This document shows positions 5,401 through 39,482 of a DNA stretch of 64,000 nucleotides, in pieces; position 1 is the first letter of the stretch, and every line of letters starts with the position of its first letter. The DNA comes from an uncultured Candidatus Saccharibacteria bacterium (GTDB taxonomy: Bacteria > Patescibacteriota > Minisyncoccia > Phycocordibacterales > G965230995), in NCBI GenBank assembly GCA_965230995.1, contig OZ246398.1:400213-464212 (forward strand), given 5' to 3'. The translations under genes and the position numbers were made by a program. The notes under the pieces are model-generated. The model was not told the origin of the DNA. It did no database searches and saw only the letters and a program-made list of their open reading frames with translations.

Positions 5401-5572
5401 TGGCAGAAGTTCCGGCAGAAGTGTCCGTCTCAATTTTTGTGTATCCGCCTTGAGCATTTTTACCGTACTTAACATTCCCAGCAGAAGCTGGAACAGAAGT
5501 TTTCACTGTTGCGGTTGGCACCGTGTCAGTGACTATGTATTTTCCGGTTTTTGGGTCTTTAAGATATGCCAT
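2387..5572 (-). CDS. Large virion/ejection protein (1061 aa) with an embedded minimal nucleotidyltransferase (Pol-beta-fold) motif
   Basis: Lies between the tail genes and the lysis cassette. The motif FGSSVEGKLKPNDVDVFV fits the hG[GS]-x(9-13)-DhD NTase signature. Confidence 0.5.
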   Translation of the reverse strand: MAYLKDPKTGKYIVTDTVPTATVKTSVPASAGNVKYGKNAQGGYTKIETDTSAGTSAKPNITTVAGLKDYALKNNVDVSDAQPQESTLQKILHVLNTGAYAVGGVISGKGIVKGIQEHTLPSEALGIKNPVGGFIADVLLDPTTYITFGYGAEAKLATKAGEVALSKAGSSLLKKSILELGEEAGRKAVATKVLEEGGEKFLAKDGLKFMGKQILPRSVVTAPFKVADTLVEKTPVVGKLYQGAKDLAGKAFVPFKSIKDMPGGIGQQYVDKFSAFSKATRSEVGKAVEEVSALGKTAKKELGDKAGIEVGKILENVPKPQMPLPRALEPIKDMVKGVDLGDIKGVDRNNIVDMKVFGSSVEGKLKPNDVDVFVKVKDGSMKFKNAGGLPSPIVIKKGKVQYFIMPESQGDELLDAMLYTGRKDQSRLYSGTAVKVPKPYWNGMMKVNDDTAQAGNKVINEITDYIRGQHKTFATKEKERGLLDYTLPDYLRHYLTPEGRDFLQKGSANITGELNKPLRIKTPFAKERELNDTIGGINKYFQKQHGVSQMFESDAFKAFAARKAEHIKAVNTYDFLTNVGKEFGRPAEVMTKEIKNPVTGKMVTKEITKPIYENGIKYIESSVPQLKGTLLPEQIVKHVDDTYKVLTNEEATKKFLGLYDKVLNFWKGSVTGWFPAFHTRNSIGGIFNNWIAGVKSPTRYLQADQIARGAEGAITTQLGTKYTYGQIRDIANRLGVVGQPGYLDVMKEVEKDIGKGPVAKLMDTPKKAMEIVENRLRLPLFVDRLIKGDAPEQAAKAVFQFHFDYAPESLAPFEQNIMKRLLPFYKWTRGNIPLQLEQMVKQPGKYAGIGKAVQGLQSDKEKAKEEFPILPPYMREGLPIRLGEKGGFSQYLYGLGLPVEDVNRLYKGSPQRTLASFIGELSPLLKYPIEAGTGQNLFTGESIEANNNVYPFMSKVPGLRDWLEVTEKKNKDGSTSYVANAYKLHFLNTALGRFYTTAGKLTDDKTSGAVKFLYGLIGAKAKSVDIEKEKFWRDQEQQDNIEQALQNRGLLKQYQRAYVPK

Positions 5573-5577
5573 AAGTT

Positions 5578-22588: not shown

Positions 22589-23150
22589 AATTTTTTAATT
22601 CTCAAATCTCTGGCACGCCCACATCCCTTGTATATTTTTTATTACCCGAACCCTTGAGCTCGGGCAGTGTGAGGTCGATTAACAAGATTGGATGTCGACC
22701 GTTATTGGGCGTGGCAGAGAGCTGGCAACAATCAAACAAAAAAGAGCTCGCGATTGATTACCACAAAAAGTGATAATTAATCGCAAGCTCTTAAACTTGG
22801 AATTCCTTTCAGGATGCCTCGTGAGGCATAACTCTATTTGATTGTTAATTGCATTATACTACTTTTCAAAAAACAGCACAATAGTTTTTTCTGTGCATAA
22901 TTTATTTACTCTCGAACGGGGATCATTTTACATAAAGCCCGCCACCAAGAGTAGAAACCTTTCGGTCTCAACGCACGAGTTTCCCCATACGACCATCCAA
23001 GGATCCCTGATGACGGGTTCTATATCTTGGATGGATTTTTTGCCATGCCTACCGCAGTGCGATAAGTTTAGGCGATTAAATTGTCACTTATTATTTTAAT
23101 ATAAAATGGGTAAAAACACCAGACCGAATTTATTTCCAGAAATGAAGAAG

Positions 23151-23271: not shown

Positions 23272-24156
23272 CTACTGCGAGACAAGACCGGAAGCCGAAC
23301 CGTAGCCGTCGTTGGCACCGTCGACCCAGTGCGCGACGAACCTGACCTTGCCGTCGTAGAACCCGAAGCACGGAGACCCCGAGAAGCCGCCACCGGCACC
23401 CGGTGCGAACTCGTCCCCGGCACAGTCGATCCAGAGATCGTCATAGTGCTGGAGTCGTTCCGGATGCGTCAGGATCATGATCCCGATGGCGAAAGCCCCG
23501 AGACCGAACTCGCTGGCGCTCATGACTTCGCGTGCCCGGCGAACCGAACGGCCCCTGTGACGGAGACCGAACTGAGCCGAAACGACGAGAATGTCGTGAT
23601 CCTTCTGCTCGTCGCCGAGCTTCTGGAACGCCTTGGCCGACTTCTGCGACTGACGGAGATACTGCGGACCGAGCTGGCCTTCACGGTAATTGTAGAACGC
23701 ACCGTTTCGGGTCTGCTTGATCAGGTCGAGCACCTTCTGCACGGCTTCGCCGTATGTCGGGGCGATCTTCTCCCACCTCGGAATGGCGAACCATCCTTCG
23801 GCGTTCGGGGGAAGATCCTGCTCGGCCAGCTTCTCATCGGCGTAGCCAATCCCGGGGAACAACTCGTGCAACCGGTTGGTCTGCTCGGTGATTCCTTTGG
23901 GCTTGTAGCCGGAGAGGTAGCCGTAGTTGGATTCCGTTTCCTCGTCTGCGAACTGATTGCTCACAGAGAGTTCACGGACGGCCGTCACGATCCTTGCTTG
24001 GAATTCGTCGCCGTTTTCGATGAGCTTCTGAAGCCCGTCCTTGTCGAGACCCGTTTCTTTGAGCGCACGCTCGGCGGCGTCCTCGACGAACCTGAAGTAC
24101 TGCTTTTTCTGTCCTTCGGTGATGCTGGTGTTGGTGATCGATGTTTTCATCGTCAT
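23272..24156 (-). CDS. DGR target (variable) protein. The VR occupies the C-terminal ~44 codons. GC-rich gene.
   Basis: The 3' terminal 131 bp (23275-23405) is the reverse complement of TR 24632-24762, with only A-to-N differences. Confidence 0.8.
   Translation of the reverse strand: MTMKTSITNTSITEGQKKQYFRFVEDAAERALKETGLDKDGLQKLIENGDEFQARIVTAVRELSVSNQFADEETESNYGYLSGYKPKGITEQTNRLHELFPGIGYADEKLAEQDLPPNAEGWFAIPRWEKIAPTYGEAVQKVLDLIKQTRNGAFYNYREGQLGPQYLRQSQKSAKAFQKLGDEQKDHDILVVSAQFGLRHRGRSVRRAREVMSASEFGLGAFAIGIMILTHPERLQHYDDLWIDCAGDEFAPGAGGGFSGSPCFGFYDGKVRFVAHWVDGANDGYGSASGLVSQ
23275..23405 (-). repeat. DGR variable repeat (VR)
   Basis: Aligns to the TR across ~131 bp. About 19 mismatches, all at TR adenines. 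Confidence 0.85.
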
Positions 24157-24631
24157 CCTCCTTCTTTTTTGAATTCCCAGAGTCGCTCTGGTCAGCGTCT
24201 TGCCTCTTTGTGAGGCGAGCGTGCTGGATACAAAAACCGCTTATATCCAATACGCCAACCTCACAAAATCGCTATATTTAGCCTTTTTGAAAGAACATTT
24301 AACTTCATGTCAGTATAGCAAATATCAACGGTTTTGTCAAGCGTTTTAATGCTACCTGATTTTAGGGTATAATAGCACTGAGTATAGGCTAATGCACGGC
24401 CGTTTAAGGATTGCCGGCGCCGAACTCTCTCATCAAGAGATAAACAACCGGAGTCTTGGGGATCACGGTTTCCAAGAGTGTGTTGCATTGAGGAGATACT
24501 GCTTGCTTTTGTTCAGAACGGGTTCCTTTGCTGGATACCGTCGAATCAAATTCAGGATTGAGAGCATATAGTTCCGTTGCCAACGGGAAGTAAAGCTCGA
24601 GGTCTGGTGACAAGGACGAACAAAAGCAAAA

Positions 24632-24762
24632 TTCCGGATGCCGATGGCGACTTCTCGAAGTCTCCGTACTTCAAGTTCAACGACGGCAAGGTCAAGTTCG
24701 ACACGAACTGGGTCGACAATGCCAACGACAACTACGGTTCGGCTTCCGGTCTTGTCTCGAAG
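24632..24762 (+). repeat. DGR template repeat (TR)
   Basis: Adenine-rich (AAC/AAG codons) counterpart of the VR. Same strand as the RT gene, 410 bp upstream of the RT start. Confidence 0.85.
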
Positions 24763-24808
24763 TCACTCCTCTTTTTAAGAAAGGGTACCCTCACGGGTAC
24801 CCTTTCTC

Positions 24809-25159
24809 TTACTCGGCTTTCACCGAGCGAATCCATCCTCCCAGCATTCTTCCGATTTCATCGATTACGCTTTCAAGTATCATATATTTTTTAGCGTCTA
24901 TCGTTTTTGTGTCCTTCATTAGTCGAATGAAGACTCTTAGCATGTTGAGCTTGAGGCTGGCCTTTTCAAGTGTTGGCAATTTTTCTTTTTTCTGCTCTCC
25001 ACTTGCTTTCATTATACTTTCCAAAACATCTAAAATCGCACACTCGGACTTTTCAAAAACCGTGAAGCGATCTTGTTTGGGAACGAGTTTGCGATACTCA
25101 TTGAATGTTTTGTATAAGTCATAGCTTTTCTTAAAAATAGGAATATCAAAGTCATTCAT
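24809..25159 (-). CDS. avd: Avd, the accessory variability determinant (four-helix-bundle family)
   Basis: 116 aa and basic. The C-terminus ...IDEIGRMLGGWIRSVK resembles the Avd/S23-IVS family ending. Lies between the TR and the RT. Confidence 0.7.
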   Translation of the reverse strand: MNDFDIPIFKKSYDLYKTFNEYRKLVPKQDRFTVFEKSECAILDVLESIMKASGEQKKEKLPTLEKASLKLNMLRVFIRLMKDTKTIDAKKYMILESVIDEIGRMLGGWIRSVKAE

Positions 25160-25171
25160 AGTTTTAATTTT

Positions 25172-26221
25172 ATGAGAGTTTATACTAATTTATTCGAGAA
25201 AATAATTTCAATCCCTAATATTTTTACTTCGTGGGAAGAATTCAAAAGCGACAAACGCAAGAAGGCGGATGTCCAAGAATTTGAATTTAACCTTGAGCCG
25301 AATTTGTTTGCTCTTTACCGTGATTTAAAGGGCAAAAGATATGTTCATTCTCCATACTCTGGATTTTATATTTATGATCCAAAGGTCAGGCATGTCCATA
25401 AGGCTTCAGTGCGTGATCGTATTTTGCATCATGCTATTTTTCGCATTCTTAATCCGCTTTACGACAAGACTTTTATAGCGAATTCGTTCTCATGCCGAAT
25501 AAACAAAGGAACGCATAAAGGAGTATTGGCTGTTGAGCGAATGATTCGAAGCGAAAGTCGAAATTTTACCAGACCGTGTTTTGCCTTAAAGTGTGATGTC
25601 AGAAAATTTTTTGACAGCATTGACCATCGCACCTTACTAAGCATTCTCGGTAAAAAAATAACAGATCAAGACACTATGTGGCTTTTGAACAGGGTTGTGG
25701 AAAGTTACTCGGCCAGTCAGACTAATTTATTCGATAGGCAGGGTTTACCCATAGGCAATTTAACCTCGCAACTTTTCGCGAATGTTTACATGAATGAATT
25801 TGATCAATTCGTGAAGCATAAACTTAAGGTTGTCAATTATGCTCGATACACCGACGACTTCGTTATTGTCTCGACCGACAGAGCGTATCTTGAAAATATC
25901 CTAGATCCAATCAAGGAGTTTTTGGATAAAAATTTACAATTGTCGCTCCATCCCAATAAGGTATCGATCCGGGCGTGTCATCAGGGCGTTGACTTCTTGG
26001 GATATGTCGCTTTCCCGTACCACCGTCTTGTAAGAGCAAGAACAAAACGGAGAATATTCCGCAAGATGAAAGAACGCATCGCCATGTTCAGAAGCGGAAC
26101 AATCAGCGAGGATGCTCTTTCGCAATCTTTGCGATCATATTTGGGTGTTCTTTCCCATGCCAACGCCCACCAACTTTCAGAAGGCCTTAAGAATCAGTAT
26201 TGGTTTTGGTTGCACGATTAA
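25172..26221 (+). CDS. DGR reverse transcriptase
   Basis: RT domain with catalytic YTDD and the DGR-specific motif GLPIGNLTSQLFANVY ([I/L]GxxxSQ). Confidence 0.9.
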   Translation: MRVYTNLFEKIISIPNIFTSWEEFKSDKRKKADVQEFEFNLEPNLFALYRDLKGKRYVHSPYSGFYIYDPKVRHVHKASVRDRILHHAIFRILNPLYDKTFIANSFSCRINKGTHKGVLAVERMIRSESRNFTRPCFALKCDVRKFFDSIDHRTLLSILGKKITDQDTMWLLNRVVESYSASQTNLFDRQGLPIGNLTSQLFANVYMNEFDQFVKHKLKVVNYARYTDDFVIVSTDRAYLENILDPIKEFLDKNLQLSLHPNKVSIRACHQGVDFLGYVAFPYHRLVRARTKRRIFRKMKERIAMFRSGTISEDALSQSLRSYLGVLSHANAHQLSEGLKNQYWFWLHD

Positions 26222-26416
26222 AAAACCCCGCAAACCATCCTTTGCGTATACAAACGCAAAAAGTCCTTTGCGAGGCTCTCTTGGATGGTTTTGCGACCAT
26301 GCCCTGATTCGGGTTTAGGCCTTATTCGGTTGTTTGCCTATTTTAGCAGGAAAAATCAATAATTGGCAGAATGTCTGTAAATATTGGCAATACTTGCCCA
26401 CAGTAGCTGGACTTGC

Positions 26417-26545
26417 ATTTACCGCTGTAATCCGTTATAATCCACTATATGGTGTATAGCGTTAAATCAATACGGCTCGACATTGTTTTTACCGCTGTAA
26501 TCCGTTATAATTAACTGTATAAACTATAGCGTTAAAATTATTAAT
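26417..26545 (+). repeat. Two tandem ~70-bp direct repeats (tttaccgctgtaatccgttataat...tatagcgttaaa) upstream of fic. Possible duplicated promoter/operator.
   Basis: Visible duplication at 26417-26470 and 26487-26545. Each copy contains a tataat. Confidence 0.5.
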
Positions 26546-26552
26546 CAAATCT

Positions 26553-27623
26553 ATGTCTATGGACAACATTTTTAACAAATTTGATCATCGAATAAAAAAT
26601 CTTGACCCACACATTGTGGCTATTTTGGCTGAGATTGACGGAATTCGAGGCGAATTTAAATCTGGCTTGCGAATGACTCCCCAGGCAATTACTAATCTCA
26701 AAAAATCTACACTGATCACTTCAGCCGGTGCTTCTACTCGTATTGAGGGTGCAAAGCTTACCGACGAAGAGGTGGAGAAAGTCATGAGAGGTCTTGCTAT
26801 CTCAAAGTTTGCTGATCGTGATTCTCAAGAGGTTCAGGGATATTTGGAAACACTCCAAAATGTTTTTGATAGTTATCAGGATTTACCACTTAGGGAAAGT
26901 TTGATCACCTCACTCCACAATCAGCTTCTTAAGTATTCGCACAAAGACGACACTCATCGTGGCAGTTACAAAAAGAAAGAGAATACTGTCGGAGTACTTG
27001 GACCGGATGGAAACATTGCAAAGATAATGTTTGAAACCACGCCGGCTTTTCTAACCGGCAAAGAGATGCAGGAACTTGTCGAATGGACAAATGATGCTTT
27101 TGAGAAGAATCGTTTCCACAATCTTTTAATTATCGCAAACTTTGTTGTTGAATTTTTGAAGATCCACCCATTTGAAGATGGTAATGGTCGTCTTTCTCGT
27201 GTTCTCACGAATCTTTTACTTTTGCGATCAGGTTATCAGTTCGTTCAGTATGTCTCACACGAGCAATTAGTTGAACATAGAAAAGACGAATATTATATTG
27301 CACTCCGTAAATCTCAAGAAACATTCAAAACCGACCACGATACAATTTCGCCATGGCTTAATTTCTTTTTATCAGTTATTAGAGAACAAGCCGTGAAGGC
27401 ACTATCGTATCTGGAAGAAGAAAAGATTGAGGACACTCTCTCTCCCAAGCAATATGAGGTATGGAAATATCTCACAGGTGTTGAACAGGCAGGACCGGGT
27501 GAGATTGTGAAGGAAACGAACATAGCACTCGGAACGGTACGCCAAGCACTCGACCGGTTGGTTGAACTTGGTAAGGTCAAGCGTGTCGGGCGTGGCCGAG
27601 GTACGAGGTATGTAAAAATATAA
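26553..27623 (+). CDS. Fic/Doc family protein (AMPylation-type) with a C-terminal winged-helix domain
   Basis: Canonical Fic motif HPFEDGNGRLSRVL. Confidence 0.85.
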   Translation: MSMDNIFNKFDHRIKNLDPHIVAILAEIDGIRGEFKSGLRMTPQAITNLKKSTLITSAGASTRIEGAKLTDEEVEKVMRGLAISKFADRDSQEVQGYLETLQNVFDSYQDLPLRESLITSLHNQLLKYSHKDDTHRGSYKKKENTVGVLGPDGNIAKIMFETTPAFLTGKEMQELVEWTNDAFEKNRFHNLLIIANFVVEFLKIHPFEDGNGRLSRVLTNLLLLRSGYQFVQYVSHEQLVEHRKDEYYIALRKSQETFKTDHDTISPWLNFFLSVIREQAVKALSYLEEEKIEDTLSPKQYEVWKYLTGVEQAGPGEIVKETNIALGTVRQALDRLVELGKVKRVGRGRGTRYVKI

Positions 27624-27630
27624 ACTTTAA

Positions 27631-28158
27631 TTGGAAATCGCTATGAAAAAACAAGAAGATAAAAAAGAGGAAAATATACATCAGGAAGGTAAACGATATT
27701 TGAAGAAATTTGAAATCGTTGAGACTGATGTCGAACTACCTATTCAGGGTCAGGTTCGTGATCCTGAGGACTTATATAAATTTCTCAAAGACTTGGAAAA
27801 CGAAAATGTTTCCAAGATTATTGGAATTTATCTTGATGACAAAAACTTATTCCTCGGTCATCAAGTTTTCCTCGGATCATCTCCCAAGAATTTCGATACT
27901 CAAATGCTTTGGCATTACTTCTCTCTATTCTTGGCCAAGAAGTTTATTATACTCATGAACCACCCCGGCTCTATTGATCCGACTCCGGATGAAGCGGACC
28001 GAAAGCTTATACGGTCATTGCAAGCCGACTCTCAGGTTTTGTCATTCCATCCTAACTTCGAGGACTTTATTATCGTTTCAAAACGGTCATACTTTAGCGT
28101 GTCAACAAATGATGGCACTGCATGTCATTGTGGTCATCAGGAATACATTCCAGAATAA
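27631..28158 (+). CDS. RadC-like JAB-domain protein (DUF2466 family)
   Basis: JAB/RadC motif ...ILMNHPGSIDPTPDEADRKL..., in the form HNHPSG..PS..D. Confidence 0.6.
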   Translation: MEIAMKKQEDKKEENIHQEGKRYLKKFEIVETDVELPIQGQVRDPEDLYKFLKDLENENVSKIIGIYLDDKNLFLGHQVFLGSSPKNFDTQMLWHYFSLFLAKKFIILMNHPGSIDPTPDEADRKLIRSLQADSQVLSFHPNFEDFIIVSKRSYFSVSTNDGTACHCGHQEYIPE

Positions 28159-28230: not shown

Positions 28231-29217
28231 ATGCCAAAAAAGAAATTCGATATTAAAAAAGCAAAATTTATTGACTTATTCGCTGGAATAGGAGGCTTTA
28301 GATATGCACTTGAATCCCATGGGTTAGAATGTGTCTATACTTCCGAATGGGACAAGTATGCACAGATGACTTATGAGGCCAATTTTGGAGAAACACCAGA
28401 TGGAGATATAACAAAAGTCGATGAGAAAAAAATTCCAAAACACAATATTATCTGTGCGGGATTTCCATGTCAGGCTTTTAGCATATCCGGTAAACAGCGA
28501 GGTTTTGAAGACACAAGAGGAACGCTGTTTTTTGATGTAGCGAGGATTGCTAAATATCATAAACCGGAAATTTTGTTTTTAGAGAATGTTAAAAATTTTG
28601 CAAAACACAACGATGGACAAACATTAGAGGTAATAAAGAAAACTCTTGATGAACTCAACTATAATGTTTTTTACAAAGTTTTGAATGCGAGTCAATATGG
28701 TGCTCCGACATCAAGGGAGAGAGTCTATATTATTTGTTTTAGAAAGGATTTGGGTGTAGATGATTTTTCTTTTCCCTTACCGGTCAATAAACCAGTAAAG
28801 CTCAAGGATTATCTTGTGGATGACAAGGAGTCGGCTTCATATGTAATAAAAAGAGACGATATAAAAATTAGAGAAAAAAATATAACAGCCGATATCTTCG
28901 GAAATTATTCACAAGGACCGATACGAATTGGCACAATAAATAATGGTGGCCAGGGTGAACGAATTTATAGTGACCTTGGACACGCCATAACCTTTTCAGC
29001 TTATGGAGGCGGTGCTGGTAGTAGAACGGGAGCTTATCTTATAAATGGTAAGGTTAGAAAACTCACGCCCAAGGAATGTTCAAGAGTGATGGGGTTTCCG
29101 GAAAACTTTAAAATACCAGTGAATAAAACCCAGGCTTACAAGCAATTTGGCAATAGCGTGGTTGTGCCAGTCTTGAAGCAAATTATGAAACAGATAATTT
29201 TAACAATAGAAAAATAA
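28231..29217 (+). CDS. DNA (cytosine-5)-methyltransferase
   Basis: Motif I LFAGIGGF, motif IV GFPCQAFS, ENV motif, and QRGFEDTRGTLFFD. Confidence 0.9.
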   Translation: MPKKKFDIKKAKFIDLFAGIGGFRYALESHGLECVYTSEWDKYAQMTYEANFGETPDGDITKVDEKKIPKHNIICAGFPCQAFSISGKQRGFEDTRGTLFFDVARIAKYHKPEILFLENVKNFAKHNDGQTLEVIKKTLDELNYNVFYKVLNASQYGAPTSRERVYIICFRKDLGVDDFSFPLPVNKPVKLKDYLVDDKESASYVIKRDDIKIREKNITADIFGNYSQGPIRIGTINNGGQGERIYSDLGHAITFSAYGGGAGSRTGAYLINGKVRKLTPKECSRVMGFPENFKIPVNKTQAYKQFGNSVVVPVLKQIMKQIILTIEK

Positions 29218-29218
29218 T

Positions 29219-29986
29219 ATGCCTATAAATAAAGATTTAAAGAAAGCGATCCTTTTAGGATCAAATACCGCTAGAGGCGGTTTTAGAAACGAAGATGATG
29301 TTGTCGAAAAATTTAACAACTGGAAAACCGACGAAGATGCTCAAAAGTGGTTAGAGACTATGGGTTATCCAATTAAGGAAATAGAGAGGGTTGAAGCAAT
29401 AAAATTGCACGGTTATAAAACCGATGTCCAAGTTCAAATTACAATTTATTTAAAAAAAGCAATTTCGGCTGAAAATATTTCAATAAAACTCGTCAGCAAT
29501 CCTCAAGGATTTAATCAGGTTGATAAAAGATGGGTAGAAAATTATATTGAAATGTGGGAAATTCCTTCTGATTTGGCGAAAGTGTTAAAGCAATTTACCG
29601 GCGAGATTCTCCCAGAAAATACAGACGGATTACGAGATCCTCGAAGACTATTTTTGGATGAAATGAGCAAAGCAGTACAAAATAAAATAATTGATTTTTT
29701 TACAAAAAATAAAATTCTCGTAGTTTCGGATATTCTAAAAGGAAGAGGAAAATTTTCAGCCGGTTGGATGCTTGTAGTGTTAAAATCAAAAGACGAAAGC
29801 AGATGGGTATTAAAATCAATAAACCACGCCATGAATGTGTTCGCGGAAGGCGAAGTTAGAATTACTCCACAAGGTAGCTTAAAAATTGGTAAAATTGGCA
29901 TGCAAAGAAAAGGTGGAGATGGTGGTCGAGATTCCGCAAAGATGTTGCAATTTAAGATAAATCCAGTTGAGCTCTTTAAAGATTAG
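29219..29986 (+). CDS. Putative type II restriction endonuclease partnered with the C5-MTase
   Basis: Its start (29219) lies 2 bp after the MTase stop (29217), placing it in the same operon. It has no MTase motifs. A possible PD-(D/E)xK-like segment is D...ISIK. Confidence 0.4.
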   Translation: MPINKDLKKAILLGSNTARGGFRNEDDVVEKFNNWKTDEDAQKWLETMGYPIKEIERVEAIKLHGYKTDVQVQITIYLKKAISAENISIKLVSNPQGFNQVDKRWVENYIEMWEIPSDLAKVLKQFTGEILPENTDGLRDPRRLFLDEMSKAVQNKIIDFFTKNKILVVSDILKGRGKFSAGWMLVVLKSKDESRWVLKSINHAMNVFAEGEVRITPQGSLKIGKIGMQRKGGDGGRDSAKMLQFKINPVELFKD

Positions 29987-30028: not shown

Positions 30029-30820
30029 ATGGATTTAGAATCTTTCAAATTACCAGCCCTTGAGGCACTGGCAAAAATAATAGGAGATCATTTCACCGGC
30101 ACAGAGGTTTCCGAGTTATTTCGCAAAGCTGGTTTTCCAGAGATTCGCCATGATGGAGGGACAAAATGGAGGTTTGTATATTCTGCGATGGAACAAATGC
30201 AAAAACAGCAGTACGGAAGCCACAACATAGCAAAGTTAATCCAACAAGTATGTGATCCTCAAGAATACTTTTCATCCCCAGACGCTCATGAGGATGTTTG
30301 TAAAAAGGTAAATAACATTTTGAGCTTCTATGGATTGGCTGTAGGTAATGATGGAAAATTAAGAAAAACTGGAGATAAGGCCACCTCACTCGCCAAAACA
30401 ATCCCCGAAAATGCAAAAATTTTTGATGATCGTCATTTTCACACAAAGATTAATCAACATGCTCGTAAATTGTTTACTGAGGGCAATTATTTTCATGCTG
30501 TTTTCGAATGTTGCAAAGTCTATGACAAAGAGGTTCAAGATAAATCCAAGATGTCTGGTTACGGAGCTCGATTAATGGAAACAGCACTTGCAACAACGGG
30601 CACAATTAAACTTAACAGTCAGATCAATCGCACTGAGGTCAATGAACAAGAAGGAGTAATGCATCTCTCGGTCGGATTGATGCGTGCCATAAGAAATCCC
30701 CAGGCTCACGAACCAGCCCTTGATTGGCCGATTATTAGAGATGAAGCCTTAGACCTTTTGTCTTTTCTTAATTTCTTGTTTAGAAAATTAGACAAAGCAG
30801 TCTACTTCAATAATAATTAA
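30029..30820 (+). CDS. HEPN-domain protein (TIGR02391/Hypoth_Ymh-like), a putative abortive-infection RNase
   Basis: C-terminal Rx4H HEPN motif in ...LMRAIRNPQAHEP... Sits next to the R-M system. Confidence 0.45.
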   Translation: MDLESFKLPALEALAKIIGDHFTGTEVSELFRKAGFPEIRHDGGTKWRFVYSAMEQMQKQQYGSHNIAKLIQQVCDPQEYFSSPDAHEDVCKKVNNILSFYGLAVGNDGKLRKTGDKATSLAKTIPENAKIFDDRHFHTKINQHARKLFTEGNYFHAVFECCKVYDKEVQDKSKMSGYGARLMETALATTGTIKLNSQINRTEVNEQEGVMHLSVGLMRAIRNPQAHEPALDWPIIRDEALDLLSFLNFLFRKLDKAVYFNNN

Positions 30821-30828
30821 CACTTTTT

Positions 30829-33804
30829 ATGAGTAATCTATACCAAAGAGGATCGGAGTGGCGAAAGTGGGATTTGCATGTTCACACCCCAAAATCAATA
30901 ATTCAAGAATATGGCGGAGATACAAAAGCAGTATGGGACGCATTTATTTTAAAAATAGCATCTTTACCACCCGAAATTAAAGTGATTGCAGTCACGGACT
31001 ATTTATTTTGTGACGGGTATGAATATTTACTTACAAGACGAGGTGAGTTTACAAATATTGAACTATTAATTCCAAATATAGAATTTAGACTTAATACTTT
31101 TAGTGGGACGGCCAACAACACTCGTAGACATAATTTTCATGTACTATTTGATCCAACCGTTAGTGTGCAAGATATTAGGGATCAGCTTTTAAATTGTCTA
31201 TCGAGTGGGTATAAAATAGAAGATAATACTAAATGGGAACAAACACCAACGAGACGATCGTTGGAAGATCTCGGCAAACAAATTAAGGCGGCGGCTCCGA
31301 CAGGAAACACTATACATAGCAAAACTGATCTTGAAGTAGGATTTGATAATATTACCTACGACAGAGATACAATTTATGAATTATTAAGCAAAAATTGTTT
31401 TACTGGAAAATTTGTAACTGCCATAGGTTATTCTGAATGGGATCATTCTCGATGGGATCAGTCAGCTGTTGAAAAGAGAGACTTGATAAATTCTGCGAAC
31501 TTTTGTCTTACATCTCTTGATGACCCATCTAAAATAAGTGAGAATCGCCAAGACCTCGAAACAAACAAATTAAACAGTATTGTTTTACATTCATCTGATG
31601 CACACAAACTTGATCGTGTCGGTCAGTCAATGCTCTGGGTTAAAGCTGATCCGACATTCGCTGGTCTCAAACAGGTACTAAATGAACCAGAAGCCCGTGT
31701 TTTTATTGGCGAGACACCTCCCAACCTTAAACCAGATCACAAAGTAATAAAAAAAATATCTATTCCACTATCTAATGGATGGTTTGCCAATGACTTTGAA
31801 TTAGAATTAAATCGGGACTTAATAACAGTTATTGGTGGCCGTGGTTCAGGTAAATCTGCCCTAGCGGAGGCGATTGCCTATGGCGCTGGAAGTAAAGATA
31901 ACAGTGATGATGCATTTTTAAAGAAAGCTTCGAAACATAAAAATTCTATAGCTGGAACTAAAATTAAAATTGACTGGGCAGATGGATCGTCTACAGAATT
32001 TGAAGTCGGGAAACTTACAGAGGATCAAGGGCTTGTTCAGTATTTACCGCAAGGAGCTGTGGAAGATCTATGCTCACACCGTAATAGTGAAAAGTTACAG
32101 AAACAAATCGAGAATGTTATTTTTCAAAAGCTTGATGACACCGAACGAATGGGTGCTTCAGATTTTGATGAACTCAGGACACGAATACTTAGTGGCTTTA
32201 AATATGAAAAAGAACAGGTTGTCGAAAAAATCCATGACATCAATCATAAGATAGGTGAGCTAGTTTCTGTACTCCGGAATCTACCGGAAAAGGAAAAACA
32301 GCTCGGCGAGAAAAAAGCCGAACTTGAAAGATTAAACAAAAGTTTGCCAGAATTGCCAGCTGAAGATAAAAAAGGACAAGAAGAACTTGCCAAACTCGCA
32401 GAAGTTAAGAAAAAGTATGAGGCCAAAATAGTTGAGCTTCAAGGTAAACTAAATAAAATTAGTGATGTTGAGACTAAAGTTAAAATTTTTAAATCTAAAA
32501 TTAAAGAATTTAAAGATGAAATTGATGTTTTGCTTACTGGGCTAGGTCTATCGGAGTCAGATGTATTTACCGTTACATTTAATGAAGACGCTATAAAAAA
32601 ATCTCTTGATTCAGAGAAGAATGAAATTGCCGAACATCTAAAAACTATTAAACAAGGAAAGAAACGGGAGGTCGCCCAGCTTCTTTCTATTGAAGAATCT
32701 GAATTACCTTTTGATAACTTGCAGGACTTGAACAAAGGTATAGAAGATAAACAGAAAGAGACGAGAGCTTTTGAAACTACAAAATTAAAATATCAGCAAC
32801 AAAAGAAAACTATTTTAACGGTTGAGAGTACAATTAAGGCAATTGATGGAGAAATTACTCGAATAAAGTCAGAATCAACCCCGGAAAAAGAACGACTGGA
32901 GAAAGAACGCTTTGGAGCTTATAGCAGTTATTTTGAGCTACTTAAAAGCGAAAAATCTAAAATGGAAGAGTTGTATAAACCACTACAAGATTCACTTTTA
33001 GCTGGAACAGATACTGATAAAAAATTGGTTTTTGAAGCACAAATTAATTATCGACTTGAACTTCATAATAAGGCAGGTCTCGATATTATTGACAGGTCAC
33101 GCAAAGGAAACTTCCGAGAAATTGATAGCTTAAAAAAGGTTCTCAGTGAGCACTCAGATGAATTTATAAGGCACGAGTTTGATCTGACTATTCTTGAAAC
33201 AAAATTAAAAGCGACTCTGGATAATTTTTTAACATTTGAGGAAAATGAAATTCTTATTGAAGATCAGCTAAGAGAAAATCACAATCTTGAAGACTTTTAT
33301 AATTGGTTATTTGATCCTACTTATTTTGAGATTATTTCATCGCTTAAGTTTGACGATACCGATCTTTATTTGCTCTCACCTGGACAGAAAGGAATTATCC
33401 TTCTGATTTTATATCTTAAGATTGATGAGGATGATTACAGGCCATTAATAATCGACCAGCCTGAGGAGAATCTTGATAATCTTTCCGTATATAGGGATTT
33501 AATTGAGTATTTCAGAGACAGAAAGCAGTTCAGGCAAATTATAATGGTTACGCATAATCCCAACCTTGTTGTAAATACTGATGCAGAACAAATTGTTGTC
33601 GCAAATTATAATGGCAAGCGAACGCCAAAACTCGAATATTGTTCGGGCTCTCTTGAGGATCAGGCAAGAAAAATACCCGATGTAGAAATTGAAAAATTCG
33701 AAGATGGGATAATTGAACAAGTTTGCAATATACTTGAGGGTGGTGAACCGGCATTTGCAAAGAGAAAAAAGAAATATCAAATTTCAATAAGAAGTAAAAT
33801 TTAA
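30829..33804 (+). CDS. PHP-domain fused to an ABC/SMC-like ATPase with a long coiled-coil insert ('Ppl'-like antiphage protein)
   Basis: N-terminal PHP motif WDLHVHTPKS, Walker A VIGGRGSGKSALAE, a coiled coil of roughly 250 aa, ABC signature LSPGQKGIILL, and Walker B/D-loop LIIDQPEENLD. Confidence 0.6.
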   Translation: MSNLYQRGSEWRKWDLHVHTPKSIIQEYGGDTKAVWDAFILKIASLPPEIKVIAVTDYLFCDGYEYLLTRRGEFTNIELLIPNIEFRLNTFSGTANNTRRHNFHVLFDPTVSVQDIRDQLLNCLSSGYKIEDNTKWEQTPTRRSLEDLGKQIKAAAPTGNTIHSKTDLEVGFDNITYDRDTIYELLSKNCFTGKFVTAIGYSEWDHSRWDQSAVEKRDLINSANFCLTSLDDPSKISENRQDLETNKLNSIVLHSSDAHKLDRVGQSMLWVKADPTFAGLKQVLNEPEARVFIGETPPNLKPDHKVIKKISIPLSNGWFANDFELELNRDLITVIGGRGSGKSALAEAIAYGAGSKDNSDDAFLKKASKHKNSIAGTKIKIDWADGSSTEFEVGKLTEDQGLVQYLPQGAVEDLCSHRNSEKLQKQIENVIFQKLDDTERMGASDFDELRTRILSGFKYEKEQVVEKIHDINHKIGELVSVLRNLPEKEKQLGEKKAELERLNKSLPELPAEDKKGQEELAKLAEVKKKYEAKIVELQGKLNKISDVETKVKIFKSKIKEFKDEIDVLLTGLGLSESDVFTVTFNEDAIKKSLDSEKNEIAEHLKTIKQGKKREVAQLLSIEESELPFDNLQDLNKGIEDKQKETRAFETTKLKYQQQKKTILTVESTIKAIDGEITRIKSESTPEKERLEKERFGAYSSYFELLKSEKSKMEELYKPLQDSLLAGTDTDKKLVFEAQINYRLELHNKAGLDIIDRSRKGNFREIDSLKKVLSEHSDEFIRHEFDLTILETKLKATLDNFLTFEENEILIEDQLRENHNLEDFYNWLFDPTYFEIISSLKFDDTDLYLLSPGQKGIILLILYLKIDEDDYRPLIIDQPEENLDNLSVYRDLIEYFRDRKQFRQIIMVTHNPNLVVNTDAEQIVVANYNGKRTPKLEYCSGSLEDQARKIPDVEIEKFEDGIIEQVCNILEGGEPAFAKRKKKYQISIRSKI

Positions 33805-33805
33805 T

Positions 33806-34555
33806 ATGTCAGAATACTACACAGCACAAAGGGTAAAAGGTTTATATGATTCAAAGGTTACCGAACCTTTTAAATTATCACGATCAAAGATTGATCTGTT
33901 CTTAAATTGTCCAAGATGTTTTTATTACGATCGCAAACTTGGTGTCGGCCGTCCACCGGGTTTTCCTTTTGCCCTCAATTCGGCAGTTGACCATCTCTTA
34001 AAACTTGAGTTTGATATTCATCGTGCAAATGGCACGAAACATCCTCTTATAGAAAAGTATGGAGTTGATGCTCGTCCGGTTGCCCACGAGGATTTGGATA
34101 AATGGCGACATAACTTTACCGGCATTCAACACTTGCACGAACTTACAAACTTTTTGATATTTGGTGCGATTGATGATCTTTGGATAAATTCTAAGGGTGA
34201 ATACATTGTTGTTGATTATAAGTCCACTTCAAAAGATGAAGATATCACGGAGTTGAATAAAGATTGGCAAATCGGCTATAAGAGACAAATGGAGGTTTAT
34301 CAATGGTTACTTCGCCAAAATGGATACAAGGTTTCTAATACTGGATATTTTGTTTACTGCAACGGACAGACTGATCGGAAGGCATTTGATGGAAAGCTTG
34401 AGTTTGATATCACATTGATTCCTTATGAGGGCGATGATTCGTGGGTAGAAAAAACTATCATTCAGGCACACAATTGTTTAAATAGTGAAAAAATTCCCGA
34501 AGCCAGTTTAGAATGTGATTACTGTAATTATGTTCGGGCAATAAATAGCAAATAA
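33806..34555 (+). CDS. Cas4/RecB-like PD-(D/E)xK nuclease with a 4-Cys cluster
   Basis: N-terminal CPRC, catalytic GAIDD...EYIVVDYKS (D...D/E-x-K), and C-terminal CDYC. Starts 2 bp after the ATPase stop. Confidence 0.65.
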   Translation: MSEYYTAQRVKGLYDSKVTEPFKLSRSKIDLFLNCPRCFYYDRKLGVGRPPGFPFALNSAVDHLLKLEFDIHRANGTKHPLIEKYGVDARPVAHEDLDKWRHNFTGIQHLHELTNFLIFGAIDDLWINSKGEYIVVDYKSTSKDEDITELNKDWQIGYKRQMEVYQWLLRQNGYKVSNTGYFVYCNGQTDRKAFDGKLEFDITLIPYEGDDSWVEKTIIQAHNCLNSEKIPEASLECDYCNYVRAINSK

Positions 34556-34559
34556 AATA

Positions 34560-34733
34560 TGTCAGACGATATTGAAAAAGAAATCGAGAATGATGACGCT
34601 CCCACCGAAGAAGTGGCAGAGTTAATGGAAAGTCATGATCTCGACAAGGAAGAAGCCGAGCATGTTCAGGAAATTATGGAGGAATACGGGTTAGATGAGG
34701 ATGATGCGGTGGAACTGTCGGACGAGCTGTAGA
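34560..34733 (+). CDS. Very acidic 57-aa protein (MSDDIEKEIENDDAPTEEVAELMESHDLDKEEAEHVQEIMEEYGLDEDDAVELSDEL). Possible DNA mimic or regulator.
   Basis: ORF with ATG 4 bp after the nuclease stop. Over 40% Asp/Glu. Missed by the 60-aa ORF cutoff. Confidence 0.35.
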
Positions 34734-34809: not shown

Positions 34810-35100
34810 TCAGAAGATGCCGTCAAGTATGTCGAAACTGTTTGATAAAAGATCTATAGCTGTCGGAAGGAACAAGACAAAGATGATCATGGTCAGCTTG
34901 GTTCCGGGATATTTACTTCCTTTGTGATCATCGACTGGAAGCAAAATAATCTCGACCTTTTTTCTTATACACACTTTAACTGGTTTCTGACAGTGGGGAC
35001 ATCGGGTTATAAACACAGCTTCGGAATTGAAGACCGCATCACGAAAAATAACCTTTGTGCAATGAGGACAATTGCCGACATTTGTTTCATCTTTGTCCAT
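34810..35100 (-). CDS. Zinc-ribbon (CPHC...CPHC) small membrane protein
   Basis: Two CxxC pairs plus a C-terminal TM helix. Confidence 0.3.
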   Translation of the reverse strand: MDKDETNVGNCPHCTKVIFRDAVFNSEAVFITRCPHCQKPVKVCIRKKVEIILLPVDDHKGSKYPGTKLTMIIFVLFLPTAIDLLSNSFDILDGIF

Positions 35101-35204: not shown

Positions 35205-35783
35205 CTAAGTATCCTTGACTGCCTCCCATCGTTGCCCCGTCCACATATGCTTCCTGCCGTCTATGATTTTTATCTTTACCCCTCCGATGGACATTTTTTC
35301 TGCTAACATCGACCTGATCTCTTTTAAGTTATCCACAGTTTTTTTATTGTCGCCGTAATTCTTTTTATTTAAATCTTTTTCTTTATTCTTGTTAGTAGTT
35401 CCGGCTGACCGATCCCACCGGTCTGTATGACCGAACTGCCGGTCAGGCTGACCGATCTTATTTAAGTTCGGTCTATCTGACCTATCTACTTTCAACAGGT
35501 AATACACATTGGAAAATTTTCGGCGTTTCTTGTTTATCAGTCCAAGTTTGATCATCTGGCGGATACCTCTTTGCACACTGGAAACGCTCGAGCCAATTCT
35601 GTCGGCAATAAGCTTGTGGGATGGAAAACAAAAACCCTCCTGATTGGCATGTTCAGCGAGGCAATTATAAATAGCAATACCAATCGGTTTGATTTCGCTT
35701 CCGTACTCATCGAGAAGTACTTTACTGATCCAAAACCAATCGCCATTTCTTAAATCTCTTACTTTTATTTTATCGTCCGACAT
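35205..35783 (-). CDS. HTH DNA-binding protein, probably a phage replication initiator/organizer-like protein
   Basis: HTH segment HKLIADRIGSSVSSVQRGIRQMIKLGLI with a basic linker. Lies between the cro side and the defence block. Confidence 0.4.
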   Translation of the reverse strand: MSDDKIKVRDLRNGDWFWISKVLLDEYGSEIKPIGIAIYNCLAEHANQEGFCFPSHKLIADRIGSSVSSVQRGIRQMIKLGLINKKRRKFSNVYYLLKVDRSDRPNLNKIGQPDRQFGHTDRWDRSAGTTNKNKEKDLNKKNYGDNKKTVDNLKEIRSMLAEKMSIGGVKIKIIDGRKHMWTGQRWEAVKDT

Positions 35784-35972: not shown

Positions 35973-36251
35973 TTACTCAGCAAGCTCTCCCTCCTCGCCA
36001 AGAGTTCTCTCCGAGTCGGTGGTTTCCGAGTCATCCGTTTCCAGATTCTCTGAATTAATCTTTTGATTAGAATTCTCGTTGTCATACTTTTTGATGTGAT
36101 CTAAATGCTCCAGTAGCATGAATGCCATGCGTTTGAAGCCAGCATGGACACGCCAAACTTCTTGCTTACTTGGTTCTCGGCCGAGCACCTCTGACAAGGC
36201 GTTTTTGGTAAGCTCAATGAGAGCTTCCTCATCCTTTGTTGGTTTGGACAT
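35973..36251 (-). CDS. Hypothetical small protein downstream of cro
   Basis: 92 aa with an acidic C-terminus. Overlaps the alternative ORF 35873-36085 in another frame, so only one of the two can be real. Confidence 0.3.
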   Translation of the reverse strand: MSKPTKDEEALIELTKNALSEVLGREPSKQEVWRVHAGFKRMAFMLLEHLDHIKKYDNENSNQKINSENLETDDSETTDSERTLGEEGELAE

Positions 36252-36330: not shown

Positions 36331-36537
36331 CTAAGGCAAAAAAATATCCTCTACTTTTACCCCCAACGCTAGGGCAATTCTTTGGGCGGTTTCCAAATTC
36401 GGCCGTTTTCGTCCGGTCTCATATCGGCTGATCGCTGTGTTATGTTTAAAGCCAAGAATACGGGCTAGTTTGTATTGCGTTAGCCCTTTCTCGATTCTAA
36501 GATCCCTCAGTCGTATGTTGGTTGGTGTTTTTTTCAT
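36331..36537 (-). CDS. cro: Cro-like XRE-family HTH regulator
   Basis: 68 aa with the HTH LTQYKLARILGFKHNTAISRYETG. Divergent from the cI-like gene. Confidence 0.7.
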   Translation of the reverse strand: MKKTPTNIRLRDLRIEKGLTQYKLARILGFKHNTAISRYETGRKRPNLETAQRIALALGVKVEDIFLP

Positions 36538-36691: not shown

Positions 36692-37414
36692 ATGTCATTT
36701 GGCTCATATCTAAAAAAACAGAGAGAAACCAACAAATGGACGGCCAAGGATATCGCTGATCGCCTTGGTTTTTCGGCCAGTTATGTCAGTCAGTTGGAAA
36801 ACGATGCCAGACTCCCTTCTCAGAAGCAGTTGGGGCTTTTGGCTAAGGCTTACGAGGTCGACGAGGACGAATTAAAAAAACAGTGGACCGAATCAAAGAT
36901 CCATAAGGTCAGCATTTCTACAAACTATAAATTCAACATCAAAGACGCTGGCGAGAAGCGTGTTGAAGAAATGACTCACAAACTGGAAGCAGGTTTGGAG
37001 GAATTAAAAAAGACGATCACAGCCGATGAAGTGGCACATTACAAAATGCCACTGTTCAATACCATTCCAGTGGAAGATCTCGATCTGCATCTCAAACATG
37101 CGGAGGAATTTATTTTTATTCCTAAGAACGGGATTGTTCGTGATCACCGTATATTCGGCATTCGTGTTTCCGATGTTCAATTTCCGGAGGCAGGTATAAT
37201 CGAAGGCGACCTGATTATGCTTGATGCGGACATTGAGGCAAGTGACGGAGACATTGTAGTGTTGTCTACGCCAGACGGTCTGGTCATGACTTACTTCAAA
37301 AAGCGTGGTGACTTTTTGGAGATTGCGACCAGCAATAAAGGTTTTCAAAAAAGTTATCCGGACAAGAGTGTCCGATTAATAGGTCGGCTAATTTATCACA
37401 TAAAAAAATACTAA
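36692..37414 (+). CDS. cI: CI-like repressor: N-terminal XRE HTH plus a C-terminal S24 (LexA-like) peptidase domain
   Basis: HTH WTAKDIADRLGFSASYVSQLE, and a C-terminal ...GIRVSDVQF...GIIEGDLIMLD...DGDIVVL... beta-barrel region. Confidence 0.6.
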   Translation: MSFGSYLKKQRETNKWTAKDIADRLGFSASYVSQLENDARLPSQKQLGLLAKAYEVDEDELKKQWTESKIHKVSISTNYKFNIKDAGEKRVEEMTHKLEAGLEELKKTITADEVAHYKMPLFNTIPVEDLDLHLKHAEEFIFIPKNGIVRDHRIFGIRVSDVQFPEAGIIEGDLIMLDADIEASDGDIVVLSTPDGLVMTYFKKRGDFLEIATSNKGFQKSYPDKSVRLIGRLIYHIKKY

Positions 37415-37459: not shown

Positions 37460-39166
37460 ATGAGTACAAATTATTTAATTTACGGCCGTGTTTCTACCTC
37501 TCGTCAGGCCGAACGAGAATTAAGTATTCCGGCACAGGTCAAAGCGTGCCAAAAGTATGGAATGGATCATCATTGGAATTTACTTCCCGATGGCATCTAC
37601 GAGGAAAAAGGCGAATCCGCAAGAACGACTGATCGTCCACAGCTCCAGAAAATGCTTCATCGAGCAAAGACGGACAGCAAGGTTGATGTCATCTTAGTCC
37701 ACAAGCTTGATCGTATGTGTCGCAATGTGGCTGATTACGCCGCCATTAAGATGATGCTTAAAAAGCACGATGCCAAACTCGTTTCAGTGGTTGAACAATT
37801 CGATGAGTCCTTTTCCGGTGAGCTGGTTGAGAACATCATGGCATCGATTGCTCAATGGACTTCACAAAACATCAGCTGGGAGGTCAGGAAGGGTCTTAAA
37901 GAGGCCGTAGAGCGTGGCAGGTTCCCGGGGTATGCACCAATTGGGTATACGAACGATAAAAAGACCAAGTCTCTTATTATTGATAATATTCGAGCCCCTT
38001 ATATAAAACTGGCTTTTGAACTTTACGCCACCGGCAAGTATTCATACGATTCTTTGTCTGCCGAACTTAATAAGCGGGGTCTAAAAAGTAAATCCGGCAA
38101 ACATGTTAATCGCAAATCAATTGAGCATTTTCTTTGCAATCCAATTTACTATGGTTTGATAAAAACTCGATCAGCTACTTGTCAGGCAAACTTTCCGCCT
38201 CTAATTTCTAAAAAACTTTTTGATGATGTTCAGGAGGTAGTCCAACAGCACAATCATTATGCAGACCGTACTCGCAAGCACTCGTATCCTATGGCAGGGT
38301 TTATGAGATGTGCTGTGTGTGGGTCTACGCTCTGCGGACAGATGCAAAAGGGTCATCTTTATTATTCTTGTACTCACTGGCAGGACAAAAACTGTACTGA
38401 ACGCAAATACATGCGATGGGAGGTTGTTGAGGAACAGGTTGCAAACCATTTATCACGGGTTCATTTACCTGATAAGTTTAAGAAGGTACTCGATTCATAT
38501 TTCCAATATTTTGCAAAAGAACGACTCGAACAGGAGGATAAAGAACGCAAGAGTCTCAAGCGTGAGCTTATAAGAGTTCAACAGCAGATTCGCAATATCG
38601 TTGTGGATCGTTCTCAGCGTATCATTGACGCCGATGTCTTTATAAAGATTCAGGACGAGCTTCTTAAGGAGAAGGAAATGTATCAGGATCGCTTGGGTGT
38701 ACTTGAGGGCAAATCTGATAAATTCGTGCAGAAATTTAATGAGTTACTGGACTTCACGGATCATGCCGACAAGGTGTTTAACACCAGCTCAATGCATCAA
38801 AAACGCACTCTGATGAAGCTTTGTTTTGAGGGGTTCACTGTCAGTAATCAAAAACTGACGCCGATATGGACGCCAGTCTTTGATGTTCTTATGGATTTGC
38901 AAGTTTCCAAACTCGAACCACCGAAACCGTCAAAGGGCTTGAAAACCCTTGCAGTTTCTAAGGTTCAAAGTTGGAAATCTGGCGGAAGAGGAGGGATTCG
39001 AACCCTCGATGGGCTTTCGCCCATACCAGTTTTCGAAACTGGGACATTCAGCCTCTCTGCCACTCTTCCGTATGTAGATAGCCTATCACTTTTTGCATTT
39101 TTTACAAAAAATGTTATATTATTCCAGTCGGTTTGGTGTCTACCAAATCCACGGCCTTATCGTTAA
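37460..39166 (+). CDS. Large serine recombinase (phage integrase)
   Basis: Catalytic motif IYGRVSTSRQ, a recombinase domain, and the zinc ribbon CAVCGSTLCGQ...YYSCTHW...C. 568 aa. Confidence 0.85.
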   Translation: MSTNYLIYGRVSTSRQAERELSIPAQVKACQKYGMDHHWNLLPDGIYEEKGESARTTDRPQLQKMLHRAKTDSKVDVILVHKLDRMCRNVADYAAIKMMLKKHDAKLVSVVEQFDESFSGELVENIMASIAQWTSQNISWEVRKGLKEAVERGRFPGYAPIGYTNDKKTKSLIIDNIRAPYIKLAFELYATGKYSYDSLSAELNKRGLKSKSGKHVNRKSIEHFLCNPIYYGLIKTRSATCQANFPPLISKKLFDDVQEVVQQHNHYADRTRKHSYPMAGFMRCAVCGSTLCGQMQKGHLYYSCTHWQDKNCTERKYMRWEVVEEQVANHLSRVHLPDKFKKVLDSYFQYFAKERLEQEDKERKSLKRELIRVQQQIRNIVVDRSQRIIDADVFIKIQDELLKEKEMYQDRLGVLEGKSDKFVQKFNELLDFTDHADKVFNTSSMHQKRTLMKLCFEGFTVSNQKLTPIWTPVFDVLMDLQVSKLEPPKPSKGLKTLAVSKVQSWKSGGRGGIRTLDGLSPIPVFETGTFSLSATLPYVDSLSLFAFFTKNVILFQSVWCLPNPRPYR

Positions 39167-39233: not shown

Positions 39234-39308
39234 GGCCTTATCGTCTAACGGTCAGGACACGGCCTTTTCAAGGCTGTAATCGGGGTTCGATTCCCCGTAA
39301 GGTCACCA
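39234..39308 (+). tRNA. tRNA-Glu (anticodon UUC), with CCA encoded
   Basis: Cloverleaf: acceptor ggcctta/taaggtc, anticodon stem cggcc/ggctg with loop uuUUCaa, and T-arm cggggTTCGAttccccg. Confidence 0.8.
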
Positions 39309-39346: not shown

Positions 39347-39482
39347 TGGTGACCTTAAGCAAGCAAATAATTTTGCTTGCGTCGGGGAATCGAAAAGGTT
39401 TCCTTTATTTATGAAAAGCTTTGCTTTGAATAAATAGGAAACCTATACTGTCCATGTAATGGAAGATTCCCCGTAAGGTCAC
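39347..39482. repeat. tRNA-Glu-associated composite. It comprises an inverted copy of the tRNA 3' half with a 24-nt hairpin insertion (39347-39394), the shared 20-mer atactgtccatgtaatggaa (39445-39464), and an 18-bp direct copy of the tRNA 3' end (39465-39482).
   Basis: Direct sequence comparison with tRNA 39289-39308. The same architecture follows tRNA-Lys. Confidence 0.75.

Follow-up and report, generated by a model that had tools for sequence, protein, structure and literature searches.

A TrlF-family PHP-ATPase gene beside a conserved Cas4-like nuclease gene in the defence island of a Patescibacteria prophage

Do three closely spaced genes on the same strand of a Patescibacteria prophage form one anti-phage system, or are they neighbours by circumstance? 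The genes in question lie in a stretch of 64,000 nucleotides (nt) from an uncultured Candidatus Saccharibacteria bacterium (GenBank assembly GCA_965230995.1, contig OZ246398.1, positions 400,213 to 464,212 of the forward strand), which we call the window, and they encode, in order, a 991-residue PHP-ATPase that we assign to the TrlF family, a solo PD-(D/E)XK nuclease (hereafter NUC) and a small acidic protein (hereafter ac57; Table 1). The original prediction proposed that they represent a new three-gene variant of the single-gene antiphage system Ppl. We find that the trio is instead a set of independent pieces of a prophage-borne defence island, and not a three-gene anti-phage system. The adjacency of the first two genes is best explained as the cassette-like placement of a stand-alone TrlF gene beside a conserved landmark nuclease within that island, a reading to which we assign a probability of about 0.75. 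Gene content, family membership and the conservation, or lack of conservation, of neighbourhoods are what the analysis establishes directly.

A dedicated system of TrlF, NUC and acidic peptide, in which the peptide would be a DNA mimic, an antitoxin or a regulator, is made attractive by the shared strand and by intergenic gaps that measure 1 nt (position 33805) and 3 nt (34556-34558), rather than the 2 and 4 bp first given, and a TrlF gene followed by NUC does recur in four other loci (L001, L011, L047 and L167; in our numbering the NUC loci are the window, L001-L086 and L178-L182). However, among the sampled loci the trio was found only in the window, and in L001, L011 and L167 the TrlF and NUC genes stand without ac57 downstream. 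Moreover, neither NUC nor ac57 occurs in any of 80 diverse TrlF loci, 65 different families are found upstream of NUC, and ac57 elsewhere follows quite different genes. These neighbourhood data largely refute the three-gene system, which we now regard as very improbable. Neighbourhood conservation had been named beforehand as the test that could overturn the proposal, and since neither NUC nor ac57 is kept beside homologues of the PHP-ABC ATPase, the original prediction fails by its own measure.

The 80 loci just mentioned are TrlF-family loci from metagenomes (27-72% identity), and none has NUC, the acidic ORF (open reading frame) or the Ymh protein (encoded directly upstream of TrlF in the window) nearby. 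The immediate neighbours of TrlF in this sample are nearly all different (69 families at 72 upstream positions and 71 families at 75 downstream positions), a pattern that fits a single-gene unit. Among the five close TrlF relatives that were checked, NUC is present beside one (L167, 82% identity) and missing from the other four (L168, 79%; L170, 74%; L169 and L087, both 72%).

The third gene of the trio follows a separate pattern. ac57 is a real gene with 126 homologues of 55-60 residues, and its small, conserved product belongs to the prophage backbone. It adjoins the same 96-residue and HTH_36 backbone genes in the window and in L002-L004, L009, L010, L012 and L176/L177, while the gene before it varies. 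That preceding gene is NUC in L009 and L010 (after a 547-residue gene in L009), an S49 peptidase in L002 and L012, TspO in L171-L173 and a 101-residue ORF in L174, and in L016 and L019 it is a TIR (TIR_2) gene together with a 102-residue gene; in L176/L177 ac57 directly follows a TrlF paralogue of 961 residues and NUC is absent. The protein was rightly described as more than 40% Asp/Glu, with 26 acidic residues in 57 (46%) and only two Lys/Arg, and this composition suggests a possible DNA-mimic or antitoxin role. It also holds two similar repeats of about 17 residues (EEVAELMESHDLDKEEA and QEIMEEYGLDEDDAVEL), and its invariant non-acidic positions are P15, M23, H26, L28, A33, V36 and M40. Scans of Pfam, PADLOC, NCBIfam and PHROGs gave no family match. 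ac57 would probably be a folded, helical phage protein.

NUC, rather than the trio, emerges as the object of interest: it is one subfamily, 64-99% identical, that spans many Patescibacteria classes and always stands alone. We examined the best 80 of 266 loci with close relatives in a representative-genome collection (72-96% identity to the query, from many Patescibacteria classes). In the 79 non-redundant loci the NUC family is universal and the next commonest co-occurring family is found in 14; no conserved partner was detected within 10 kb on either side, the runner-up families (14/79 loci) being phage backbone genes. Genes directly upstream of NUC fall into 65 families (76 loci), and those directly downstream into 69 (77 loci). 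About 87% of neighbours are co-oriented with NUC, with median gaps of 5-7 nt, and tight packing is therefore the norm around NUC whatever its neighbour may be.

The identity of these upstream genes bears on a second explanation, in which NUC is a promiscuous effector shared among whatever NTPase-type defence genes precede it (the candidate partners being TrlF, HerA, helicases and AbiP2-type reverse transcriptases), in a Patescibacteria-specific arrangement of plug-in sensor plus common nuclease. Consistent with this idea, about 88% of the genes preceding NUC share its strand, at a median distance of about 7 nt, TrlF paralogues of 25-93% identity recur among them, and about 40% encode large NTP-dependent nucleic-acid enzymes (RVT_1 in six cases, ResIII and SMC_N in five each, DUF87 in four, UvrD and HsdR in two each). 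Among these upstream genes are five AbiP2-type reverse transcriptases (best E-value 6.8e-174) and four HerA genes of SIR2-HerA (best 1e-241), along with type I/III restriction subunits, UvrD helicases, five TrlF/SMC-like ATPases and the housekeeping genes UvrA and MscL; downstream lie genes for TIR, S49 peptidase, NYN, TspO and glutamate dehydrogenase proteins. Yet AbiP2, SIR2-HerA and type I/III restriction are known systems that are complete and self-sufficient, and the systems found upstream need no nuclease of this kind in order to work elsewhere. Housekeeping genes (UvrA, MscL, glutamate dehydrogenase, TspO) are also among the neighbours of NUC, and L176 lacks NUC although it shares the backbone and carries a TrlF paralogue. 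Furthermore, the 64-99% identity of NUC and its 30% of invariant columns speak for a single fixed function and against adaptation to many partners. We consequently consider a shared effector unlikely.

The Cas4-like PD-(D/E)XK assignment of the original prediction stands: NUC matches Pfam PDDEXK_1 (5.9e-15; 56.3 bits, cutoff 22), and its AlphaFold model (predicted local distance difference test score, pLDDT, of 80) finds Cas4 SSO0001 (4ic1) as its top Foldseek match, followed by EXO5, MGME1, AdnAB and Cas4-Cas1-Cas2. It scores under the Cas4 cutoffs (35.8 vs 65 bits for TIGR00372 and 19.4 vs 22.7 for PF01930), and a sequence search of the PDB returned nothing. The catalytic residues D123, D124, D137-Y-K139 and Q161..Y165 are invariant. 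Six cysteines are conserved (C35, C38, C185, C237 and C240 in 75/75 sequences and C224 in 99%), in the layout C35-x2-C38, C185, C224, C237-x2-C240, which differs from the canonical C...CxxCx5C. An association of this Cas4-like gene with CRISPR was considered and rejected: the window has no CRISPR array, and no scanned gene near NUC gave a significant Cas-family match apart from NUC's own matches to Cas4.

Conservation of NUC is high throughout. Homologues number more than 8000, the top 120 being 80-96% identical and all named sources Patescibacteria lineages; the wider family forms 320 clusters at 50% identity (E <= 1e-30). Across 75 NUC proteins the pairwise identity is 64-99% (median 75%), 30% of columns are invariant, and conservation at the DNA level ends at the borders of the ORF; conservation analysis of the flanks found no attachment (att) or cassette-type DNA sites beside the gene. 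The gene occurs twice in one metagenome-assembled genome (L013 and L042, ADurb.Bin326), and L041 carries tandem NUC paralogues. NUC probably has its own strongly constrained function in DNA-end processing, under very strong purifying selection, and would be an autonomous exonuclease stabilised by Fe-S or Zn.

A third possibility is that NUC serves phage or host as a recombination/repair exonuclease, or as an anti-defence factor, at the flank of a recombination hotspot, with ac57 as a DNA-mimic anti-restriction factor in the service of the phage. NUC does match phage exonuclease families and phrog_31195 (4.3e-20) in PHROGs, its fold resembles EXO5, MGME1, AdnAB and lambda Exo, it is found on IMG/VR contigs, and nearly half of ac57 is acidic. 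Nevertheless, NUC lies among defence genes in a block oriented opposite to the lytic genes, the invariant hydrophobic and His residues of ac57 suggest a specific fold and not a generic polyanion, and Pfam, PADLOC and PHROGs gave no match to known anti-restriction families. This explanation, too, we hold to be improbable. We suggest, more tentatively than not, that NUC could mark defence hotspots throughout the lineage, as a landmark or homology anchor in the phages and islands of Patescibacteria; a nuclease module common to many sensors is the less probable alternative.

With respect to the first gene, the 991-residue protein is a new member of the already known TrlF family, a sister or relative of Ppl. 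It matches the NCBIfam TrlF model NF045780 over its full length (589.6 bits, cutoff 350; residues 7-984 on profile positions 1-944), and its homologues are labelled 'TrlF family AAA-like ATPase' in the source databases. By comparison, the Ppl model NF042955 gives 111.8 bits where 1000 are required, and aligns best over the C-terminal ~140 residues alone (839-980), and the PADLOC Ppl model (PDLC02208) gives 84 bits, again with a C-terminal best stretch. An identification as Ppl proper is rejected on these scores, such that the 'Ppl'-like description is right as to architecture and wrong as to family.

That architecture consists of an N-terminal PHP phosphoesterase domain (residues ~1-300) and, after it, an ABC ATPase head of the Rad50/SMC kind whose two parts are separated by a coiled coil of about 280 residues. 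All of the motifs quoted in the original prediction are present, as are its three ORFs on the plus strand: WDLHVHT (residues 14-20), GGRGSGKS (336-343), LSPGQK (849-854) and LIIDQPEE (873-880). Domain searches supported the ATPase through Pfam SMC_N, AAA_23 and AAA_21 (weak matches) and did not support the PHP domain, for which the Pfam PHP model gave no match; the PHP assignment consequently rests on conserved ligands and on fold. Across 39 aligned homologues (46-88% identity), five PHP metal ligands never vary (D15, H19, E85, H104 and D257), two more (H17 and H259) are kept in at least 90%, and the ATPase motifs are likewise conserved (Walker A G336-S343, Q-loop Q408, signature L849-G852, Walker B D876-E879, H-loop H909). 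The AlphaFold2 model (pLDDT 83) matches SMC, Rad50, JetC and MukB heads in Foldseek, with E-values from 4e-12, and RNase AM, a PHP enzyme, is among its matches over the N-terminal ~300 residues (9etk; E 1.1e-4); a sequence search of the PDB found only Rad50, SMC and AriA fragments. The conserved motifs and the fold matches together thus bear out the claimed PHP-ATPase architecture, with its split ABC/SMC head and coiled coil as in Ppl. As a separate observation, the 961-residue TrlF paralogue of L176 (positions 3112-5994) and L177, 28% identical over the ATPase, has WDLQTQT at its N-terminus where the window protein has WDLHVHT, and has therefore lost the PHP histidines.

From this evidence we infer biochemical activities and expression in the lysogen as follows. 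TrlF is predicted to be a stand-alone defence nuclease-ATPase related to Ppl and, by analogy with Ppl and Rad50/SMC proteins, would most likely act alone: its ATPase heads would dimerise on ATP, the coiled coil and heads would sense a DNA feature, such as free ends, or nucleotide status, and the PHP domain would then work as a metal-dependent exonuclease against phage DNA. The plus-strand block at 26.5-34.7 kb would be cargo expressed in the lysogen of a temperate phage integrated by tRNA-Glu, and would comprise a string of independent modules (Fic, RadC-like, a HinP1I-type pair, Ymh/HEPN, TrlF, NUC and ac57). RadC, NUC and ac57 would be conserved landmarks of the phage lineage, with defence genes exchanged between them in two slots, one from RadC to NUC (slot A) and the other from NUC to ac57 (slot B). 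TrlF would abut NUC because it is the final cargo gene of slot A, and not because of any joint function.

Several points weigh against this interpretation. The 1- and 3-nt spacing and the co-orientation would equally suit an operon of interacting proteins, and the literature searched holds no experiments on any of these proteins. Genes in the loci were called by a simple longest-ORF method, which is crude, before the proteins were clustered, and the NUC survey covers only the best 80 of the 266 loci. In addition, a TrlF-like or SMC-like ATPase is among the commoner upstream neighbours of NUC, some examples being divergent paralogues (25-32% identity). Only about 5-6 of the roughly 80 NUC loci have a TrlF-like gene directly 5' of NUC: the window, three loci with 74-93% identity (L001, L011 and L047), L050 with 32%, and probably L029. 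The same position is taken by a TrlF gene in L167 and by distant paralogues (25-31% identity) on the viral contigs L179/L180 and L181. This recurrence means that a facultative functional link in Patescibacteria is possible.

Table 1 Features of the prophage and its defence block in the window, in order of position
Feature	Position	Strand	Remarks
Phage structural genes	1-22.6 kb	-	SU10 major capsid protein (4.4e-40), portal-like protein, beta-helix protein, Dam methylase
Retroelement target ORF	23272-24156	-	294 aa, 55% GC
Variable repeat	23274-23403		3' end of target ORF
Template repeat	24634-24763		retroelement
bAvd	24809-25159	-	retroelement
Retroelement reverse transcriptase	25172-26221	+	retroelement
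Fic gene (SoFic-like)	26553-27623	+	profile matches
RadC-like gene	27631-28158	+	profile matches
C5 cytosine methyltransferase	28231-29217	+	DNA_methylase 2.8e-98; PADLOC MTase_II
R.HinP1I-like endonuclease	29219-29986	+	R-HINP1I 3.4e-81; PADLOC REase_II
Hypoth_Ymh (HEPN-type) protein	30029-30820	+	Pfam Hypoth_Ymh 2.3e-30; PADLOC PD-Lambda-3_B 1.9e-36, full length
TrlF-family protein	30829-33804	+	991 aa; NCBIfam NF045780, conserved motifs, AlphaFold2 model, Foldseek
Solo Cas4/EXO5/AddB-type PD-(D/E)XK nuclease (NUC)	33806-34555	+	249 aa; PDDEXK_1, conservation, fold
Acidic protein ac57	34559-34732	+	57 aa; closing gene of plus-strand block; homologues, synteny
96-aa ORF	34810-35100	-	backbone
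HTH_36 replication-initiator-like gene	35205-35783	-	backbone; Pfam/PHROGs matches
92-aa ORF	35973-36251	-	backbone
Cro-like HTH	36331-36537	-	backbone; Pfam/PHROGs matches
cI-like HTH + S24 peptidase (repressor)	36692-37414	+	backbone; Pfam/PHROGs matches
Large serine integrase	37460-39166	+	backbone; Pfam/PHROGs matches
tRNA-Glu(ttc)	39234-39308	+	right-hand prophage/host junction, 68 nt past integrase ORF; ARAGORN, Rfam

The trio was correctly described as prophage cargo: the window has an SU10-type capsid gene and a cI-like repressor gene, its large serine integrase gene adjoins tRNA-Glu, and host genes (FtsZ, FtsA, GyrA and others) lie beyond the tRNA. A repeat search with the tRNA-Glu region found neither an att repeat nor the left end of the prophage, and returned only a 26-nt repeat inside host DNA. 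The lysogeny/replication backbone recurs in the same gene order, at 54-100% protein identity, in L002, L007-L013, L033, L176 and L181, where the cargo differs and includes, across the related elements, AbiP2, SIR2-HerA, restriction-modification and TIR genes. On its left the cargo slot is bounded by Fic and RadC, a conserved flank whose homologues (87-97% identical) occupy the same position in L002, L012 and L013, with cargo between RadC and NUC that differs from that of the window. L002 and L012 carry type III restriction-modification and SIR2-HerA, then NUC, S49 peptidase and ac57; L013 carries four other genes; and L009, a further backbone relative, carries genes of 1027, 382 and 547 residues, then NUC and ac57.

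Within the window itself, the C5 methyltransferase and the R.HinP1I-like endonuclease make up a type II restriction-modification pair. The Ymh gene, 8 nt upstream of TrlF, is separate cargo, and none of the other TrlF and NUC loci that were examined encodes its protein; PADLOC gave no match to a PD-Lambda-3_A partner. A PD-Lambda-3-like pair of Ymh and TrlF is rejected on these grounds. The literature searched yielded nothing useful on the composition of PD-Lambda-3. As no PD-Lambda-3_A partner was detected, the Ymh protein may stand as an orphan or belong to some variant module for abortive infection.

Other features of the window lie outside the trio. Just upstream of the Fic gene, a 54-nt direct repeat is present in two copies (26413-26536; 83% identical, 70 nt apart) that contain TATAAT-like boxes and are a possible promoter or operator for the cargo block. 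A complete diversity-generating retroelement (23272-26221) lies between the structural genes and the plus-strand cargo, its variable and template repeats differing at 18 of 130 nt, with all 18 mismatches at template adenines. About 200 nt downstream of its target gene and variable repeat is a LOOT RNA (Rfam; 22954-23074, minus strand; 76.5 bits, gathering score 46.4), and no link between LOOT RNA and diversity-generating retroelements was found in the literature searched. ARAGORN and Rfam both call a tRNA-Ser(cga) (38980-39069, minus strand) within the 3' end of the serine integrase ORF, and an exact 26-nt direct repeat (39445-39470 and 63032-63057) brackets about 23.6 kb of apparent host DNA that includes FtsZ, FtsA, GyrA and tRNA-Lys.

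Little has been charted of the defence systems of Patescibacteria, a group in which CRISPR is reportedly rare. The present analysis locates a relative of Ppl, of the TrlF family, in the defence island of a Patescibacteria prophage, and it removes a tempting false lead, in that tight, operon-like spacing in the compact genomes of Patescibacteria and phages is no sign of a functional system. Between them, a conserved nuclease gene and a conserved phage backbone enclose interchangeable cargo, and they could anchor the mining of defence genes in uncultivated Patescibacteria; indeed, were NUC a true landmark, it would be a usable marker for finding new ones. The hyperconserved solo nuclease in hypervariable, defence-rich arrays is a more unusual feature than the TrlF gene and may deserve separate follow-up.

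How do these genes compare with known systems? The name trlF comes from the temperature-restriction locus (TRL) of Photorhabdus laumondii, an operon trlR-trlF-trlG in which TrlG carries AlbA_2 and HATPase_c_4 domains (PMC7554251). That study assigned TrlF no function because all mutations mapped to trlG (PMC7554251), and it is the only paper in the literature searched in which 'TrlF' appears. The window protein shares the PHP N-terminus and the ATPase with the TrlF family, full-length and above the curated cutoff, whereas neither TrlG nor TrlR adjoins it, its neighbours being the Ymh protein and the PDDEXK nuclease; the trlR/trlG operon context does not belong to the NCBIfam definition of the family. 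Ppl is described as an exonuclease that degrades single-stranded DNA in the 3'-5' direction and is controlled by nucleotide levels and 3'-OH ends (PMC12904381). Like Ppl, the window TrlF unites a PHP nuclease domain and an ATPase in one polypeptide, encoded by a single gene without a conserved partner, although it falls short of the Ppl model, belongs to a sister family and has a predicted activity.

NUC shares with the Fe-S nucleases of the Cas4, EXO5 and AddB/AdnB types the same fold, the D..DxK..QxxxY motifs and conserved cysteines at both termini, and differs from Cas4 in its CxxC...CxxC arrangement with two further cysteines and in scoring below the Cas4 cutoffs. Finally, the defence hotspots of temperate phages and satellites, such as those of the P2/P4 type, carry variable defence cargo between conserved core genes. 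The phage lineage in the window is similar in that varied defence systems lie between conserved flanks (Fic/RadC, NUC, ac57 and the lysogeny module), but here the host lineage is Patescibacteria, and the NUC landmark is equally conserved in loci without this phage backbone.

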